This document shows positions 33,001 to 45,000 of a stretch of DNA of 58,893 nt, one piece after another. A program made the position numbers. Source of the DNA: a bacterium (GTDB lineage Bacteria; JAMCPX01); contig JBBIVV010000013.1 in NCBI GenBank assembly GCA_037439545.1, positions 1-58,893 of the forward strand, in the 5' to 3' direction. The first letter of the stretch is position 1; each line of letters opens with the position of its first letter.

Positions 33001-36000
33001 GAAGCTTGAACATACGGTATCGGCAAAGATTATACTTGGTGCCGCTGTTGCCGATGACATCCTCGGACTTCTTGTCCTTGCCGCGGTGACCGGTGAGACA
33101 AACGGCATGGTCAATAGTTACAAACTCATTTCCCTGTTTGTCGTCTCAGTCCTTTTTATAGCGGGCGTCTTTCTCATAGGGAGCCGTTCTGTAAAAATAC
33201 TGAAGTCAAGACTTGAAAAAATGAAGGTCGAGAAAAATGAATTTATCCTGAGTTTGACATTTCTCCTTGGCCTTGCGTATCTGACATCTTCTATCGGTAT
33301 GGCAAGCATTGTCGGCGCTTTCTTTGCAGGACTCCTGATGGCAGAACTCGAGGACCAGCACCTGTCCGATATGTTTGATTCGATCTATGAATTTCTGGTC
33401 CCATTCTTTTTCGTTATGATAGGTATGAAGATCCAGCCGGAGCTGCTTATCAGATCCGATATTTTATTCGTAGCCGTTATCTACAGTCTTATAGCCATTG
33501 TCAGTAAATACATCGGATGCGGGGCAGGCGCCGCACGATACGGGTCCCGCGTCATGAACTTTGTGGGGCTGGGCATGATTCCGAGGGGTGAGGTGGGTAT
33601 GATCGTTGCACTCATAGGACTGAACATGGGTGCTATAACCGGCAGTGCATACGCCATGATCATCTTTATGGTCATTGTTACGACTATCATTACCCCGTTC
33701 CTTCTTTCTTTTTTCTCAAAACACTGGCAGGTGAAGTAGGACCACGCGAAGGTAGGGGCGGAGGTTCCCCGCTTTTTTTTATAATGCGGAATTGCGGTCC
33801 GGTTTATGAACGGACGCTATATGCAATGGATTGATATACGACCTGTAGGTAATACCGTACGATGTCCTTATCGCCTCGGGGACCACGAGAAAATTGAACA
33901 CCGGTCCTTGTTCGATGGTAATGTCCGTGTACTTGTCTCTTGTAAGTTCTCCATCGAGGGCATACCCGCATTCTGCTTTTATCTGTACTTGCCTTGCCGT
34001 TCCGTTGAATGCCCTCGGAGGGATCTGTTTGCCTGTTGAGAACGCCCTCAGATTTCTTATGACGACCCATGGGTCTGAAGCTGCCGCCAGAAAATAAAAA
34101 CTGTTAACACCTTTCGTATCAGGGCTGTAAAATGGCCGGAACCATAACAAAAGCCTCTGGAATACTCCGGCAATCGTCATAAGGTACTTTTCTTCGGGAT
34201 ACTTCTTCCCGTCTATGTAAATGTCCGCATTGAACTTGCTGTAGTATTTTCTTATCCTCGGATTCCCTATCATATAGCCGCCGATCGTTGTCGTAATCAG
34301 GTTGACAACCGTGCTGAAGGTAGGGTTTTCCTGCTTTGTAAAAAGATCCTGAATCTTATATACGATTCCATTGGTAAAGGCAAAACCGTACTTAATCCCG
34401 TTGCTTTTATCCGTAATTTTTAGCGGCATTACCGGCAGGAGCTGCATGGTCTCTTCTTCTTTGCCGTAAGCATCCAGGTAATGCATAAGTATTCTGACCG
34501 CATCGAGCGGATTTTTCCTGACCCCCATGTTGCCGGCAATCATGTTTGAAGTGCCGCCCCGCAGGGGGACGATGATCGGCAGGTCTTTTTCAGGCAGATT
34601 TTTTATCAACTCGGTAACGAGCCTCTGTAACGTCCCGTCTCCTCCATTGATCATCAAAAGGTTTACCCCTTCTTCCTTTATGAGGTGTAGTGCGGACGGC
34701 AGGTCCGATAGCGAATAGACATCGATAATCTTGCAGGTAGTATCGCTTGCAGCGGGAATAAAGGACAGGAATTTGTCTTTATTGTATTTATAACGCTTAT
34801 TTTTTCCGGAGTTCATATTGTTAAAGATTGCACACCTTAACTTCATAAAATCTCCTTTAAAAAAAGGTTACAAAACTATTTATAAAAAATCAAATAAAAA
34901 AGGCAACACCTCTGAAAACAGAGGTGTTGCCTGAAATAAGTTAACCTCTTAGAACAGATATTCGAGTTTTACCGCAGCTACATTGAAATCGCCCGCTGAA
35001 AGGCTGCTATTCCCATACTGTGCAGCTCCCACATTGTACTTGCTGAATATAGATTCCTCAATCAGCAGATTTACATTCTGAAATGCGTACCATGAGAGTC
35101 CAACAACCATTCCTGACAGATCGACGTCCTGCACCTGGGATGAACTACGGGAGAAATACTTAAAGTATGCGCCGTATGTCCTCTTATAATAATAATCAGC
35201 CATCAGTCCAATGCCGGTTCTTGAAACACTGGTGCCGTTGGCCGTATAGGGGTTTCCGTCAAATGCATCTGTACCGTAAAATTTGTTATCATTGTCATTC
35301 TGATAAACTATAAACAATTCGGCAAGATTATTGTCCGTTATCATCTGCACCTGTGCATCTATGCCATAATTGTAATAGTTATCCTTGTAATTCCCGATTG
35401 TTGAAGTAGTCGGTGCTTGCATGCTTTCTGTGCCGAAATAGCTGTATGCGCCCACTTCAGCGTAGACGTTGCTTAATTCCGGCAGATAATAGGCAAGACG
35501 CAAAGCCCCATCTTCACTGGCTGTCCCAAGAAAAGAGCCGCTTCCAGCTACATTACCCTGAACAAAGTTGTTCCCTGTCTGAGACAGTGTCGGGTGGTAC
35601 ACGCCTAAACTTGCGTAAACGCCGCCTGCATTAAAATCACCCCACATGCCATACAGCTCTCCGCCTTCCAGTTTTGCTGTGTTGGGATCAAAGAGCGTAT
35701 TATGGGTACTCATGGCCATAAGTGTCGATGTCAATCCCCACATACCGAATGTGTTTGAAGGATCACCCATATCCATTGCATCTTCGGCCCTCACACCATA
35801 TATGAGCCGTTTATCACCTATTGTAGTATCATTGCCGACAAGCGCAAGATCAAAAATACCGAGACCGAGACTTCCGCCTCCATCATCAATACCGGTCAGC
35901 TCGAGGAATGTACCGAGGTTGGATGTAATCTTGCCTGCTACGTACACACTTGAATCGCCGACAAGGTTCAACACATCTGATCCTCCGTAACCTGATGGAT

Positions 36001-42000: not shown

Positions 42001-45000
42001 ACATTTTTTTCATTATCGATTTCCCTCCATTAACTAATTTATAATAAATATCTGTAGCTTTTTCAATAAAAAAATTGTATTATGAGCAAATCAATCATAT
42101 TTATAAAATGAAACTCTATTAAATTTGTAATAGTTTTTTGTCAAGCTTTTTTTTACCTGCTTTTTTGATTATGACGTGCAATGAAAAAATTGCTTGACTA
42201 ATTAAATAAAAGTATGACTTTGTAACATACCCTTTTACAAGGACGTGTAACTATGATGAAAAATATGAAGTATATAATACTGTTATTCGTAGTGCTTTTT
42301 TACGCTCCAGGCGTACAGGCGGACCAAAATGCCTGCGTTGCCTGTCACACCACCTTAAATACTGATCAGGATAAATCCGTCATGGATTGCTGGCAGCGTT
42401 CACTCCATAAACAGAACGGCATAACCTGCGACGCGTGCCACAGGGGTAATCCGGATATCGCGGCCGGCAATGTGAATCGCTTATCGAAAGAACAGTTTCT
42501 TGCCTTAAAAGCGCGCGCAATGTCTCCGGCCAAAGGGTTTATAGGCATACCCTCGTCAACGCAGATGTTTGACATGTGCGGACAGTGTCATAGTGATTCA
42601 GTCAACAGATATAAAAACAGTATTATGGGTGTTGCGTATCTCGACAAGAAAGGCGGCCCGTCCTGTACCGATTGTCATTCAGCCCATTATGTCATTATTC
42701 CCGATGTCCCGAAAACATGCGAAAAATGCCATAAAGATACGACTGGATTCGATCAGATAGACCCCATGAACGTGAACGATGCAACAGTGAGCGACCTTTC
42801 AAGAATAAGGATAAAACTTGCGGAAGAAAGGGTTAAGGGCAAAGAACCGCCGTTGTTCCCTGAAGAACTCGGCTCGTTCCAGATTGGATTTGTTGCATTC
42901 GGAGCAATCATTGTTTTGTTCATTATTGCTTACCTTATATTCATGTTGATAGAGAAAAGGAGGTAACATGGGTTTTGAAGTCATCCACAGTAAGAAGCCG
43001 TCCTACTCAATAAGTGCAGCGATCACCATTACACTGTTGTCCCTTGCATCGCTCGTCATAAGTGTACTGTTCGCCTATTTGTTTATCACAGGAAAGAGCA
43101 CAAATTTTATCATAGGTATGATGCTGTCCGCAGAATTTCTCGTTGCAGGTATTATCCTTGTGGTGTATCTGAAATATTTTCTTGTATTCAGAGAGGTCTC
43201 TGAAGACAGGAAGGAGGAACTGTTATGGTAAATCAATCCGACACCGGAAATAAGGCGGGTATCACAAGAAGAAAATTTATACTCGGTGCAATTATCGTAT
43301 CTATCGCCGGGGCCTTCGGCTCCCTTCTGTCCGTTCTCAAGGTCTTGTCCCCTTCGAAAAAGGGCAGCGGCTATGTGTCTACGATCGCGGTGGGAGATCG
43401 GCTTGTTTATGCATCGGGCAGCAATATAGGTGCTGACCTGAAAGCAAGCTCATTGAATACCGGTGACGCTGTACTCGTATATCCAAAGTCCAAGTCATCG
43501 AATCCTGCAAACCTGGTACAGCTTATCAAGCTGAACGACTCCGACTTTAAAGCACCGACAGACGTTAAATTGACGGATAAAGGGTTTGTTGCTTATAGCG
43601 CGATATGCACGCACCTTGGATGTACCGTATCATGGGTAAAAAACGAAAGTGCGCCGGACACTTCATACACGGAATGCTTCTGTCACAACAGCATATTCAA
43701 TCCGGCAACGGGTGAAAAGGTAGAAGGCGGACCCGCACCGATACCGCTTGCGCAGATAGGCATTAAGGTGACGGATAACGATACGCTCGTCTTTACGAGC
43801 GATTTTACAGGCCCGATAGGCCCGCAGGTTTAATAAAAAGGGGATTATGCGATGTTTAAATGGTTTGATGAGAGGCTTGAACTAAAAAAATTCAAAGAAA
43901 AGTTTTTATCCAAAACATTTCCGACCCACCCGACATTCCTCCTGGGTGAAATAGCCCTGTTCTCATTCGTGACACTCGTCATAACGGGCATATTTCTCGG
44001 ACTGCTCTATGAGCCGTCGTCAAAGATGGTTTCATTGTTCGGTGCAATGGTGCCGGCTGCTTATGCAAGTGTCGTAAGAATAGATCTGCTTCCCATGGGC
44101 ATGCTCATAAGGCGGATACATCACTGGAGTGCAATGATCATGATAGCTTCGATATTGGCACACCTTATGAGGGTTTTTTTCACCTCCGCTTACAGAAACC
44201 CGCGGGAGATAAACTGGTATGTGGGGCTCGGGCTCTTCGGCATTTCCTTGTTCGCTGCATTTACGGGCTATCTGCTGCCGTACAGCAATTTCTCCGTTAC
44301 AGCAACTTCCATCGGCTATTACATAGCAAAGTCGGTCCCGTGGATCGGCAACTGGATCTCAAGACTCGTTTTCGCCGGTGACTTTCCGTCCGATTCTACA
44401 GTCCCGAGGTTTTTCTTTTTACATGTCATGCTGATACCTGTCCTGCTTATCGGCACTATAGGGTTACACATGATGATCCTTATCAAGCAGAAACATACGG
44501 AACCCGCATCGAACAGGAACAAAAAAGAGGCTGAGAACGGCAAGAGGCTTATCGGCATACCCATCTGGCCTGAACAGACCGTTATCAGCATAGCATTCTT
44601 TTTCTTTCTGTTGTTTACCGTTGTTATTATATCGACGTTCATACCTTTAAATCCGATTGAGACCTACGGTCCGCCTGCGGCGGGTACTCCTGTCATGCGG
44701 CCCGACTGGTACTTCCTGGTCGTCTATGGATTTCTTAAATTGATACCCGGTAATTTAACATTCTCAATTCTCGGAGGGAAGATCACGCCGGAAACTATCG
44801 GCGGGGTTCTATTCCCCACGTTTATAATTCTCGTATTTGTACTGCTTCCCTTGCTCGATAAGGCAAAAGAGCCTCAACACTATATTACGAATCCGCTTCA
44901 CAGGCCATTCATGACGTCATTCGGCATTACAGGCGGTGTTTTCCTTACCATGTTTGTCGTTTCGGGTTACATTGACGTCCTGAAGATAGCACCAAGGACA

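Follow-up and report, generated by a model that had tools for sequence, protein, structure and literature searches.

A Cyc2-type cytochrome-porin gene adjoins genes for an NAD(P)-linked Rieske/cytochrome b complex in a probable sulfate reducer and outside its phylum

A gene for a Cyc2-family cytochrome-porin was found as the last of seven co-directional open reading frames on the minus strand between positions 34949 and 42013 of the window (the whole 58,893-nucleotide stretch of DNA analysed here), in one operon with the genes for an NAD(P)-linked Rieske/cytochrome b complex (Table 1). This linkage is not the quirk of one family: elsewhere both the Cyc2 lineage and the gene order differ. New here is the same pairing outside the phylum, with distantly related Cyc2 genes and with linked genes scattered on both the Cyc2 and the cytochrome b trees. 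A literature search found no paper describing linkage of Cyc2 to such a complex. We regard the architecture, and the view that Cyc2 and the complex are functionally coupled, as well supported and very probable. The complete reading, in which one transcription unit specifies an envelope-spanning path and quinol is bifurcated with outward flow through Cyc2, is put forward as a tentative proposal that may well prove wrong.

Table 1. Features of the Cyc2 operon and its surroundings
Feature	Position	Strand	Remarks
Monohaem class-I cytochrome c, 121 aa	41648..42013	-	PF00034, E 1.4e-10; first gene of unit
GltD/NfnB-like NAD(P)-binding FeS-flavoprotein, 652 aa	39598..41556	-	Fer4_20, Pyr_redox_2 and Fer4 domains
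Rieske [2Fe-2S] protein, 175 aa	39084..39611	-	PF00355; CTHLGC and CPCHGS boxes
Cytochrome b, 441 aa, b6 part fused to subunit-IV part	37757..39082	-	PF00033 and PF13631
Tetrahaem cytochrome c, membrane-anchored	36867..37739	-	Four CxxCH, one anchor helix; start from homology
DoxX-family small membrane protein, 133 aa	36429..36830	-	PF07681, 24.8 bits against a cut-off of 23.6
Cyc2-family fused monohaem cytochrome-porin, 475 aa	34949..36376	-	CxxCH; barrel model
Terminator-like hairpin	34901..34932	-	14-bp stem with 8 G-C pairs, then T run; consensus scan only
Intergenic region, A+T-rich, divergent	42014..42252		Common to operon and second Rieske/cytochrome b cluster
Second Rieske/cytochrome b cluster, without flavoprotein	42253..45847	+	Pentahaem c, DUF7318, Rieske, QcrB-like cytochrome b, pentahaem c

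The tight packing given in the preliminary description was reproduced in reading frames, domains and spacing. The monohaem cytochrome c and flavoprotein genes are separated by 91 nucleotides, the flavoprotein and Rieske genes overlap by 14, a single nucleotide lies between the Rieske and cytochrome b genes, and gaps of 36 and 52 nucleotides separate the multihaem cytochrome c gene from DoxX and DoxX from Cyc2. The longest open reading frame for the multihaem cytochrome c spans 36867-37913; a start at 37811 would overlap the cytochrome b gene by 55 nucleotides and one at 37739 would leave a gap of 17, and the latter was preferred as the start agreeing with aligned orthologues. A strong terminator-like hairpin lies 16 nucleotides past the Cyc2 stop codon and was seen after the last operon gene only. 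Promoter-like hexamers matched the consensus on the minus strand of the divergent intergenic region (42122-42094 and 42107-42079), but such matches numbered 12 against 17.0 expected from shuffles and are by themselves no evidence of a promoter. The spacing, with a hairpin solely after the last gene, suggests that the seven genes most likely form one transcription unit.

The last gene product matched nothing in Pfam or NCBIfam. By every sequence criterion that Keffer et al. 2021 (PMC8406198) set out, the protein belongs to the Cyc2 family, as had been claimed: a signal-like N-terminus precedes a single C44DVCH48 haem motif, invariant among homologues, with A-x-P-x-F-A-R-Q-T before it and P52-H-L54 after it. 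The AlphaFold model is a beta-barrel (pLDDT 80.6, pTM 0.79), and the top PDB folds are porins. These scores agree with the earlier ones, as does the set of 82 homologues, which includes a JGI entry named 'iron:rusticyanin reductase' (47% identity) and proteins of Hydrogenobaculum, Desulfurella and Kryptobacter. For the paralogues in the same genome, described before as sharing the motif, with 58% identity given for one of them, we obtained 60% identity in one case (G000:C73) and an N-terminal match only in the other (G000:C1). A third Cyc2 paralogue adjoins a cytochrome c peroxidase.

The flavoprotein (PF14691 Fer4_20, E 4.5e-14; PF07992, E 2.9e-28) carries two GxGxxG/A motifs and two C-terminal CxxCxxCxxxC motifs, has no hydrophobic segment in its sequence, and belongs to a family in which 17 cysteines are invariant (32 sequences compared); it is predicted to be cytoplasmic, with an additional C-terminal two-cluster ferredoxin domain. 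Its best PDB matches were NfnABC (9bov, E 5.6e-76), NfnA and the NfnI large subunit, and Kuste4570 of Kuenenia has the same structural relatives (NfnABC / NfnB). The Rieske protein, which has a twin-arginine N-terminus (RRKF), finds its two best matches in the whole PDB in Kuste4569 (9rk4, E 9.4e-22) and Kustd1480 (9rk3, E 1.1e-18), supporting the label 'anammox-style' that the complex had been given. Its CPCHGSKY sequence contains the Ser/Tyr pair typical of high-potential Rieske proteins, and GSKY is identical in the alignment with Kuste4569, for which a potential of +303 mV has been measured.

Against NCBIfam, the cytochrome b (PF00033, E 1.7e-37) scored 224.5 bits with ExtP and 74.3 bits with ExtQ, both below the cut-offs; because both match, b6 and subunit-IV parts are joined in a single chain. 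It has seven hydrophobic segments, the spacing His107/121 and His215/230, and a signature of His38, H230-M-W-R-I-R-K-D-G-G and APWY replacing PEWY, while CxGG is absent, indicating no haem cn site. His38 and R235-K236 are found in all 19 sequences compared, and His38 in all 80 metagenome relatives; new here is the placing of the protein in a large family marked by this invariant histidine on the N side and by WRxRKDGG. In the Kuenenia complexes, the modelled extra haem b is surrounded by His43/His62 and Arg247/Arg266-Lys267, which these residues parallel, and by its position and motif His38 recalls the ligands of that haem. Genes for one subfamily of cytochromes b adjoin genes for NAD(P)-binding FeS oxidoreductases "in many other cases" (PMC5600118).

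In the monohaem cytochrome c, the only CxxCH begins at residue 44, and the N-terminus is hydrophobic and signal-like. The earlier term tetrahaem is correct for the multihaem cytochrome c of the window and not for its orthologues, which have five haems in the alignment; the window's protein is without their fifth, C-terminal haem domain, of which the monohaem cytochrome c is a paralogue. Two genera of the phylum conserve the operon, at 59-84% protein identity, and Cyc2 relatives occur in 11 of 13 genomes when G000 is counted (10 had been reported). Of the four genomes said to share the gene order, G007 and G008 contain the whole operon; G003 and G005 are consistent with it though interrupted by contig ends, as are G010, G011 and G006, and in G002 the contig ends inside the multihaem cytochrome c gene. 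Synteny bore out both the truncation in G006 and the location of Cyc2 beside the second Rieske/cytochrome b cluster in G009, whose GltD module lies on a different contig.

Outside the phylum, the same module for cytochrome c, GltD-like flavoprotein, Rieske protein, cytochrome b and multihaem c is present in Candidatus Binatia; Cyc2 adjoins 6 of the 11 type-1 examples there, lying upstream of the module, once divergently, and sharing 26-33% identity with the window's Cyc2. It is absent at 5 of the 11 type-1 modules and adjoins 0 of the 6 type-2 modules examined, and modules without it carry a haem-less OprO/P-like porin in that position; by synteny, DoxX is present in the phylum's operons and missing from those of Binatia. 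A Cyc2 gene also adjoins the module at metagenome loci L170, L182, L189, L190 and L196; of the 12 loci flanked by 2 kb or more on either side, 4 are linked. The 'linked' label requires at least seven changes on the Cyc2 tree, and linked modules stand in at least seven places on the cytochrome b tree; the adjacency is thus judged to have had several independent origins, each time involving a different Cyc2 lineage or another branch of the complex. The Binatia modules without Cyc2, and G009, in which it stays with the other cluster, count against coupling.

That adjacency, together with the invariant haem motif and one terminator for the whole unit, renders it improbable that the genes are neighbours without a dedicated wire or that Cyc2 serves a non-iron role, with sulfur species, humics, Mn or arsenite as partners or as co-regulated envelope equipment. 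Such a role would accord with the closest Cyc2 relatives (Hydrogenobaculum, Desulfurella and Kryptobacter-like MAGs), in whose genomes the GltD module was not found at E <= 1e-50. These organisms are not known as classical iron oxidisers. The haem-less porin replacing Cyc2 in Binatia and the peroxidase gene beside the third paralogue point the same way, as does the uncertain function that Keffer et al. (PMC8406198) ascribe to divergent Cyc2 homologues, those of the Cluster 3 type included.

The bifurcating mode and outward direction that we tentatively prefer are a best guess. The Cyc2-type haem-in-porin would form the outer membrane end of the path; soluble monohaem c would lie in the periplasm, followed by membrane-anchored tetrahaem c, the high-potential Rieske protein and the b6/subunit-IV cytochrome b with its quinol site, and the GltD/NfnB-like flavoprotein would take the cytoplasmic face, with four or five FeS clusters leading to FAD and NAD(P). 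Menaquinol would be oxidised at the outer quinol site, where its two electrons diverge. One would move downhill from the Rieske protein through tetrahaem c, monohaem c and Cyc2 to a high-potential extracellular acceptor, which in acid iron-rich water would be Fe(III), and this step would drive the other through the membrane via two b haems, perhaps also via a further haem held by the dimer's invariant His38 pair, and then down the series of FeS clusters to FAD, with NAD(P)H as the product. The scheme is the one proposed for the Kuenenia complexes, itself a proposal, with the Fe(III)/Fe(II) couple reached via Cyc2 instead of nitrite/NO. Futalosine-route menaquinone genes within the window may count in favour of this quinol-fed outward flow, as may an uptake-type [NiFe] hydrogenase with a b-type anchor just upstream of GltD-Rieske-b-c-Cyc2 at L170, where a 2-oxoacid:ferredoxin oxidoreductase is encoded immediately downstream. 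At neutral pH the potential of Fe(III) minerals is too low for quinol to reduce NAD(P)+ with their help, so that outward flow fits acid habitats; it is not obvious that it also fits the relatives from soil and peat, namely Binatia and the metagenome loci. Also in favour of this direction, PMC7735108 presents for anaerobic A. ferrooxidans a model with Cyc2 as terminal Fe(III) reductase fed by the bc1 complex.

A single wire from Fe(II) making NAD(P)H, as first proposed, is not supported: from the Q cycle and the scheme in PMC12954380 we infer that Fe(II) electrons could not go directly to NAD(P)+, because its reduction on the N-side needs quinol oxidation and a Rieske branch to a higher-potential acceptor. 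Nor is the complex supported as the long-sought uphill partner of Cyc2, the uphill route of Acidithiobacillus ferrooxidans through the petI bc1 complex and NDH-1 having already been published. In a rival arrangement that spells out the mechanism of this first reading, and that we consider somewhat less likely than outward flow but a serious contender, Cyc2 would pass Fe(II) electrons to the periplasmic c pool and mostly on to the cytochrome c-dependent oxidase, reverse flow through the second Rieske/cytochrome b complex would supply quinol, and the GltD complex would bifurcate this quinol to NAD(P)H and cytochrome c, replacing reverse Complex I. The Cyc2 proteins biochemically tested so far were all assayed as Fe(II) oxidases, which also counts against outward flow. 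In the genome dsrA and aprA score above curated cut-offs, supporting the earlier statement that it is from a dissimilatory sulfate reducer. In field papers cyt572/Cyc2-like transcripts and proteins of acid-mine sulfate reducers at large were interpreted as iron oxidation. The genome's only two PF00033 genes belong to its only two Rieske/cytochrome b clusters, which diverge from one intergenic region, and it encodes a cytochrome c-dependent haem-copper oxidase (FixO-like dihaem c and COX1) and NuoF, which would allow electrons to run from Fe(II) to O2 alongside reverse flow. Fe(II) oxidation would further agree with Cyc2 standing beside flavoprotein-free Rieske/cytochrome b clusters in G009 and in 'Bacteroidetes', Acidobacteriota and FCPU426 MAGs, and with a multicopper oxidase and a haem-copper oxidase near the related loci L139 and L163, which fit oxidation rather than reduction. 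However, two Rieske/cytochrome b complexes sharing their quinone and cytochrome c pools would then have to run against each other, which would be thermodynamically awkward unless the carriers are separated. Moreover, the classical reverse route may exist given NuoF, the operon encodes nothing that reduces quinone, and the hydrogenase adjoining L170 suggests another source of quinol.

The identical architecture would suit an NAD(P)H-oxidising chain without bifurcation, in which the flavoprotein hands electrons from NAD(P)H to the b haems or to the inner site for quinone, and a Q cycle delivers them through cytochromes c and Cyc2 to an oxidant outside the cell, Fe(III) or some other. Hauser et al. 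treat it as conceivable that NAD(P)H reduces quinone by way of the extra haem, and many relatives occur in probable heterotrophs of soil and peat. We hold this improbable, since according to Hauser et al. it would waste an enormous amount of energy, and since it would make a high-potential Ser/Tyr Rieske protein unnecessary and would duplicate NADH oxidation for which NuoF is already available.

The pairing of Cyc2 with this complex in unrelated bacteria suggests a direct electrical link between extracellular iron and intracellular NAD(P)H.

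Seven open reading frames follow one another on the minus strand of the window, and Pfam or NCBIfam models name six of them, confirming the observation and the gene calls of the preliminary description. The topology script detected no hydrophobic segment in the flavoprotein. Neighboring genes are separated by gaps of 91, 1, 36 and 52 nt and in one place overlap by 14 nt. An overlap of 55 nt between the cytochrome b and multihaem c genes had also been reported, but orthologues of the latter begin at a later Met, matching position 37739, and the overlap is replaced by a 17-nt gap behind cytochrome b. 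The unit has a single strong terminator-like site, a G+C-rich hairpin with a 14-bp stem and a T run 16 nt past the last stop codon, while a promoter scan of the operon region gave fewer sites than shuffled sequences and was dropped as carrying no evidence. From this operon-like packing we infer co-transcription of the seven genes.

Genes of the Cyc2 operon, with the basis of each assignment
Product	Position	Strand	Features and basis
Monohaem class-I cytochrome c	41648-42013	-	Pfam/NCBIfam; signal-like N-terminus (script)
Flavoprotein, 652 aa	39598-41556	-	Fer4_20 two-cluster domain, FAD and NAD(P) Rossmann folds, C-terminal two-cluster ferredoxin domain
Rieske protein	39084-39611	-	Pfam/NCBIfam; twin-arginine N-terminus (script)
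Cytochrome b	37757-39082	-	First half b6/ExtP, second half subunit-IV-like ExtQ; seven hydrophobic segments
Tetrahaem cytochrome c	36867-37739 (longest ORF to 37913)	-	Four CxxCH, one anchor helix
DoxX protein	36429-36830	-	Pfam/NCBIfam
Cyc2-family protein, 475 aa	34949-36376	-	No Pfam or NCBIfam match; signal-like N-terminus (script)

The multihaem cytochrome c of the window ends after four haems. In all eight aligned orthologues (six from the same phylum and two from Candidatus Binatia) a linker and a fifth class-I haem domain (GCTACHTIGKG..) follow, as in loci L022:10741-11997, L024:4352-5635 and L061:10222-11430, and this domain is a paralogue of the monohaem cytochrome c encoded by the first gene of the operon. 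Given that only 36 nt remain before DoxX, the domain has been deleted, not frameshifted, in the window. On the other side of the operon, a second, flavoprotein-free Rieske/cytochrome b cluster (42253-45847, plus strand) encodes a pentahaem c, DUF7318, a Rieske protein, a QcrB-like b and another pentahaem c. The two are transcribed divergently from a common 239-nt spacer, and each contains a cytochrome b gene, with no others in the genome; the pairing is kept in genomes G008 and G002 of the phylum. Two further genes of the window (12733-14649), one for an MqnC-like radical SAM protein and one of the VitK2_biosynth family, point to the futalosine route to menaquinone.

Cyc2 has been defined (Keffer 2021, PMC8406198) by a signal peptide, a single CXXCH, a length above 365-400 aa and a 16-strand OprO/P-like barrel, with AXPXFAR[Q/K][T/Y] five residues before the CXXCH and PXL four residues after it (PMC8406198). 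In the last gene product of the operon, positive charge at the N-terminus, hydrophobic residues 6-27 and a following AHA form a predicted signal peptide according to the hydropathy script. Its only CXXCH, C44DVCH48, is invariant across 49 aligned homologues and is preceded by A32-I-P-S-F-A-R-Q-T40, G-F-S and followed by P52-H-L54 (full stretch A-I-P-S-F-A-R-Q-T-G-F-S-C-D-V-C-H-T-V-F-P-H-L), a motif kept in all 82 database matches. The length also lies within the family range (a minimum of 365 aa, in most cases 400 or more). An AlphaFold2 model built from 49 sequences (pLDDT 80.6, pTM 0.79) showed 17 strand elements after residue 93, and its Foldseek comparison with the PDB returned 195 matches at E <= 0.001, with OmpF-type 16-strand porins at the top and 18-strand MOMP/AlgE also included, so that model and matches together predict a beta-barrel of 16-18 strands. 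By sequence and modelled fold, the last gene is a member of the Cyc2 family, with predicted iron redox activity.

The protein shares the signal peptide, the single CXXCH, both motifs, a length of more than 400 aa and an OprO/P- or OmpF-like barrel with A. ferrooxidans Cyc2, Mariprofundus PV-1 Cyc2 and Leptospirillum Cyt572 (Keffer 2021; McAllister 2020), but, unlike them, it groups with Desulfurella and two 'Bacteroidetes'-labelled MAGs on a separate long branch, and database matches add Hydrogenobaculum and Kryptobacter-like sequences to this group. The nearest named family member, from an uncultured Zetaproteobacteria MAG, is 26% identical (E 9e-26), and no flavoprotein-Rieske-b module was found at E <= 1e-50 in the three genomes with the closest relatives outside the phylum. 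A scan of 11 of the 64 parts of a species-level genome collection led to an estimate of about 3,600 stored stretches with A[IVL]P[SA][FY][AS]RQTG, and 590 of the 602 examined encode a relative; like the other frequencies in this study, these rest on similarity-chosen samples and are not censuses. The genome has a third, distant Cyc2-like gene (418 aa) that keeps the N-terminal motif; directly ahead of it, in the same stretch of contig C1 (L031:8582-10941), a di-haem cytochrome c peroxidase is encoded (CCP_MauG, E 3.8e-61). The 90% cluster of a 491-aa homologue, P0008, also lists 54-aa Methylobacterium 'ribosome modulation factor' proteins, apparently an artefact of the cluster table.

The Rieske protein of the operon has the two boxes CxHxGC and CxCHxS, as CTHLGC at residue 90 and CPCHGS at 124. 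Compared with all PDB chains, it was closest to 9rk4 (E 9.4e-22) and 9rk3 (E 1.1e-18), followed by a b6f Rieske protein (2.7e-15). The former two are the Rieske subunits Kuste4569 and Kustd1480, each from one of two NAD(P) oxidoreductase-bearing complexes of the anammox bacterium Kuenenia (PMC12954380). The high-potential Ser/Tyr pair is held in CPCHGSKY, the same as in Kuste4569, which titrates at +303 mV (PMC12954380). By sequence, the operon's Rieske/cytochrome b part belongs to the anammox type.

The flavoprotein combines PF14691 (residues 19-94) with PF07992 (134-476) and has GAGVGG at 140 and GGGLVA at 271, the composition of the GltD/NfnB/DPD group. Its PDB relatives are NfnABC (9bov, E 5.6e-76), NfnA and the NfnI large subunit, besides NfnB and GltD, and the same structural relatives were given for Kuste4570 by Hauser et al. 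(PMC12954380). Since it scores below every NCBIfam equivalog cut-off, it should be regarded as a relative and not as one of the named enzymes. Seventeen cysteines, six N-terminal and eleven C-terminal, are invariant in 32 flavoprotein sequences. The gene adjoins those for Rieske protein and cytochrome b in 15 of 15 Binatia places and at 49 of the 59 metagenome loci that allowed the test, and a multihaem c with a membrane anchor takes the place of c1/f, with four CxxCH in the window and five in orthologues. Complexome support for a flavoprotein of this kind on the membrane complex comes solely from Kuenenia (as cited in PMC5600118).

In the cytochrome b, His107/121 and His215/230 are invariant with b6 spacing, and the ExtP/b6 model aligns with residues 32-240 and the ExtQ model with 286-430. 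These models, from the Geobacter 'selenite/tellurite reduction operon' (NF040969 and NF040970), are the best NCBIfam ones for the b6 and subunit-IV parts. However, the scores (224.5 against a cut-off of 290, and 74.3 against 150) both fall short, and the protein is therefore not a member. The CxGG of the haem cn site is replaced by S-M-V-L-G-T in the window and was found in none of the aligned cytochromes b of the phylum or Binatia. By contrast, 12 of the 80 metagenome relatives (L159-L238) keep it, in the alignment column that corresponds to window residues 48-62, indicating that the family spans forms with and without haem cn.

Three features were found in all 19 flavoprotein-linked cytochromes b of an alignment drawn from the phylum, Binatia and other loci (alignment A2): His38 in L-H-[WIVL]; H230-x-W-R-x-R-K-D-G-G, straight behind the last haem ligand; and N-P-A-K-A-P-W-Y-F..L-Q-E in place of PEWY. 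They are absent from eight cytochromes b of flavoprotein-free clusters, including the second one of the window. His38 is also invariant in the 80 metagenome relatives found by the family motif. We rejected it as a marker of flavoprotein adjacency because it is kept in ten loci that have upstream room but no GltD there; it therefore marks the family. The same motif search, covering 2 of the 64 parts of the metagenome store, led to an estimate of about 33,000 stored stretches with this cytochrome b family. In the AlphaFold3 models of Hauser et al. (PMC12954380), an unexpected b haem lies on the dimer axis of both Kuenenia complexes, with His43 (Kuste4571) or His62 (Kustd1481) as modelled ligand and Arg247 or Arg266-Lys267, together with an Arg of the flavoprotein, at its propionates (PMC12954380). 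His38 and R235-K236 of the window may correspond to these residues, as judged by position and motif.

Taking the Kuenenia operons (Kuste4569-4574 and Kustd1480-1485, PMC12954380; cytochrome b 'subfamily G' of Dibrova 2017, PMC5600118) as a whole, they resemble that of the window in joining a Rieske protein, a b6-type b and subunit IV to a multihaem c, not to c1/f, and in encoding a large cytoplasmic NAD(P)-binding FeS-flavoprotein. Their Rieske proteins and that of the window are mutually closest among solved relatives, with the Ser/Tyr pair in both, and the N-terminal His and the Arg-Lys after helix D at the modelled extra haem b site would be equivalent by position and motif. However, b6 and subunit IV are fused in the window and split in Kuenenia, and CxGG, present in the planctomycete proteins (PMC5600118), is lacking in the window, which thus would be without haem cn. 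The window c has four haems versus six to eight, with no HAO-like partner, while the operon adds a monohaem c, DoxX and Cyc2 in a host that is not an anammox bacterium.

Linkage of Cyc2 to this module was followed first inside the phylum, over 13 genomes. The whole operon is present in G007 and G008, and is cut by contig ends, without contradiction, in G003, G005, G006, G010 and G011; the contig of G002 ends inside the multihaem c gene. In G009, Cyc2 sits beside the second Rieske/cytochrome b cluster with the GltD module on a different contig, and no flavoprotein match at E <= 1e-80 was found in G001, G004 and G012. Because these genomes are kin, conservation inside the phylum alone proves little. 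Around Cyc2 relatives in named genomes, a Rieske/cytochrome b pair was found within 10 kb in 8 of 80 loci (7 distinct places). Two Candidatus Binatia MAGs have a c-GltD-Rieske-b-multihaem c module that is 47-51% identical to that of the window, with Cyc2 upstream. A flavoprotein match at E <= 1e-100 was present in 20 of 81 sampled Binatia genomes (21 places), and the genes for Rieske protein, cytochrome b and multihaem c followed it in all 15 places examined. Of the two classes of Binatia module, Cyc2 adjoins 6 of 11 type-1 modules (L061, L052, L139, L142, L147 and, divergently, L141), ten of the eleven being from the Binatia sample and the other being L052, and is absent at five; it is next to none of the six type-2 modules examined. 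In metagenome loci found via the cytochrome b motif, 42 of 80 have a flavoprotein match of at least 250 aa, and 4 of the 12 with at least 2 kb on both sides have a Cyc2-motif ORF. Cyc2 lies downstream in L170, as in the window, and upstream in L182, L189 and L190; it stands beside a more distant module in L196 and was detected by BLAST only in L184.

In a quick IQ-TREE search with 96 Cyc2 sequences, on which the long branches L031, L182 and L196 are unreliable, the label 'linked' (Cyc2 beside the GltD-Rieske-cytochrome b module) needed eight changes, and starred branches forced at least seven, with the merely cut L021 counted as unlinked and L033 left out. Similarly, a FastTree of cytochrome b residues 1-300 placed linked modules in at least seven places. 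Such scattering on both trees indicates either repeated joining of lineages or an old link that was often lost, and under both histories selection holds Cyc2 and the complex together.

Several neighbors of these modules deserve description. In type-1 modules without Cyc2, the same place holds a 512-540-aa protein with a signal peptide, a coiled-coil N-terminus and a ...TIGF end, but no haem motif. Such porin-like genes lie at L143:11874-13439 (minus strand), L144:7603-9195, L146:6932-8530, L163:5271-6893 and L179:5339-6877, and the protein atlas groups their products with Binatota clusters in which 14-35% of members have Porin_O_P, the OprO/P type of barrel to which that of Cyc2 is likened (PMC8406198). 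A 176-aa protein between Cyc2 and c in L061 has a non-significant likeness to the coiled coil of these porin-like proteins (E 0.066). A histidine kinase and a sigma-54-dependent response regulator are encoded directly upstream of Cyc2 in different lineages (L061:19-3590, L189:3484-5825 and L190:3153-5641), and these three operons may be under sigma-54 control; no such pair adjoins the operon of the window. Beside L140 is an ACIII-like set (L140:688-7121) with a c7-type cytochrome, a molybdopterin-type subunit, NrfD and a cytochrome c.

Exchange between outer-membrane Cyc2, periplasmic c and a Rieske/cytochrome b complex is known from A. ferrooxidans (rus, petI and petII; Cyc2, rusticyanin, Cyc1/CycA, bc1 and NDH-1), where it runs inward during Fe(II) oxidation, with petI uphill, or outward during Fe(III) reduction with H2 or S0, with petII. 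In the petI order cycA-sdrA-petABC, too, Rieske, b and c1 come after genes for a c-type cytochrome and an NAD-type dehydrogenase; SdrA, judged by its description, is probably not homologous to GltD. By contrast, A. ferrooxidans has cyc2 in the rus operon with an oxidase, apart from the bc1 genes, uses a classical bc1 with c1 and obtains NADH from Complex I, not from a flavoprotein on the bc complex; the window operon itself has no rusticyanin gene.

In which direction would electrons flow in the window? In a Q-cycle, an electron reaches the N side only with quinol oxidation on the P side, its partner going to the Rieske protein (PMC12954380). It follows that NAD(P)+ reduction by the flavoprotein would require a strong oxidant at the end of the c branch. 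NAD(P)+ lies at -320 mV and menaquinone at about -75 mV. Hauser et al. (PMC12954380) argued that a Rieske protein near +300 mV lets the low-potential branch reach NAD(P)+. The only c branch outlet encoded in the operon is Cyc2, and the Fe(III)/Fe(II) couple is near +770 mV at low pH (PMC8406198). For these two reasons we favor quinol bifurcation with Fe(III) as the pull: menaquinol would be oxidised at the outer site, with one electron passing through the Rieske/c branch and Cyc2 to Fe(III), and the second through the low-potential branch and flavoprotein to NAD(P)+, paid for by the Fe(III) pull. The anaerobic model of A. ferrooxidans, in which hydrogenase or S oxidation feeds quinol, bc1, c-type cytochromes, Cyc2 and Fe(III) in turn (PMC7735108), fits such outward flow. 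So does one locus, L170, where a [NiFe] hydrogenase large subunit of the uptake type (785 bits), a b-type anchor, a maturation protease and an AraC/PocR regulator (L170:2928-7500) lie upstream of GltD-Rieske-b-c-Cyc2, with a 2-oxoacid:ferredoxin oxidoreductase just downstream on the opposite strand (L170:14193-16867). On the other hand, Fe(III) minerals at neutral pH have potentials of only 0 +/- 100 mV (PMC8406198) and could not pull, which counts against outward flow, a reading that would fit an acid habitat.

A strong rival is inward Fe(II) oxidation via Cyc2, the reading of the preliminary description, in which Fe(II) electrons pass through Cyc2 and the Rieske/b complex to NAD(P)H. Tested Cyc2 proteins have been assayed as oxidases, the genome encodes a FixO-like dihaem c and a COX1 oxidase, and the presence of NuoF speaks against outward bifurcation. 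Multicopper oxidases occur near two modules, one with Cyc2 (L139:15714-17126) and one without (L163:2623-4422 and the 12236-13942 region), the latter being also adjoined by haem-copper oxidase subunit I. However, Fe(II) oxidation needs quinol from elsewhere, for example from the second complex in reverse, and then two complexes would run in opposite directions on shared pools. A straight path from Fe(II) through Rieske and b haems to NAD(P)+ was rejected on the reasoning that it would be doubly uphill and against the membrane potential. The architecture proposed earlier (parts, topology and anammox-type Rieske/b) is thus retained, while calling the complex the first uphill partner of Cyc2 overstated the case, as the bc1-based uphill path of A. 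ferrooxidans is already in print.

Anammox Rieske/b complexes bearing an NAD(P) oxidoreductase have been published (PMC12954380; PMC5600118), and the cytochrome b genes of one subfamily were reported to adjoin NAD(P)-binding FeS oxidoreductase genes 'in many other cases' (PMC5600118). Cyc2 has been described as an oxidase (PMC8406198) and as a ferrireductase (PMC7735108), and the bc1-based uphill path of A. ferrooxidans has likewise been published. In acid-mine sulfate reducers labelled Candidatus Acidulodesulfobacterales/SZUA-79, cyt572/Cyc2-like genes, transcripts and proteins are on record (PMC6776010, PMC13594681), with a Leptospirillum-type Cyc2 variant in SZUA-79 MAGs in a 2026 paper (PMC13594681); the available text of PMC6776010 does not mention Rieske or bc1. 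A literature search, with supplements and subscription literature outside its scope, found no paper joining Cyc2, Rieske, 'glutamate synthase' and iron oxidation. Literature found on Cyc2 in Binatia named no link between Cyc2 and the complex, and the Cyc2 literature examined made no mention of a pairing with an NAD(P)-linked complex. What is new is that two known kinds are combined, and the case gains strength from its recurrence in different phyla and from residues specific to the family.

Of all steps in microbial iron metabolism, the one between Cyc2 and the cytoplasmic pyridine nucleotides is the most poorly understood; for neutrophilic iron oxidisers, current models show just 'bc1 or ACIII, then Complex I in reverse'. 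Coupling of Cyc2 at the gene level to a Rieske/b complex with an NAD(P) module, in at least three unrelated groups, represents a testable candidate for the missing link and extends the anammox hypothesis of an NAD(P)H-making bc complex outside the anammox niche. His38, WRxRKDGG and APWY..LQE are family-specific residues open to mutation, and for acid mine drainage the finding bears on whether abundant Cyc2-expressing sulfate reducers oxidise or reduce iron. It is conceivable, though on balance we consider it doubtful, that Cyc2 is the outer end of a widespread iron-coupled bifurcating machine, a Rieske/b complex that has an Nfn-like flavoprotein and three kinds of b haem site. It would oxidise quinol, pass one electron via c-type cytochromes and Cyc2 to the extracellular Fe(III)/Fe(II) couple, or be driven by that couple, and deliver the other to NAD(P)+. 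If so, the haem-less OprO/P-like porins of the sister operons would be variants for soluble substrates, and autotrophs in acid mine waters, soils and peat would gain a route to NAD(P)H without Complex I or proton-motive force.
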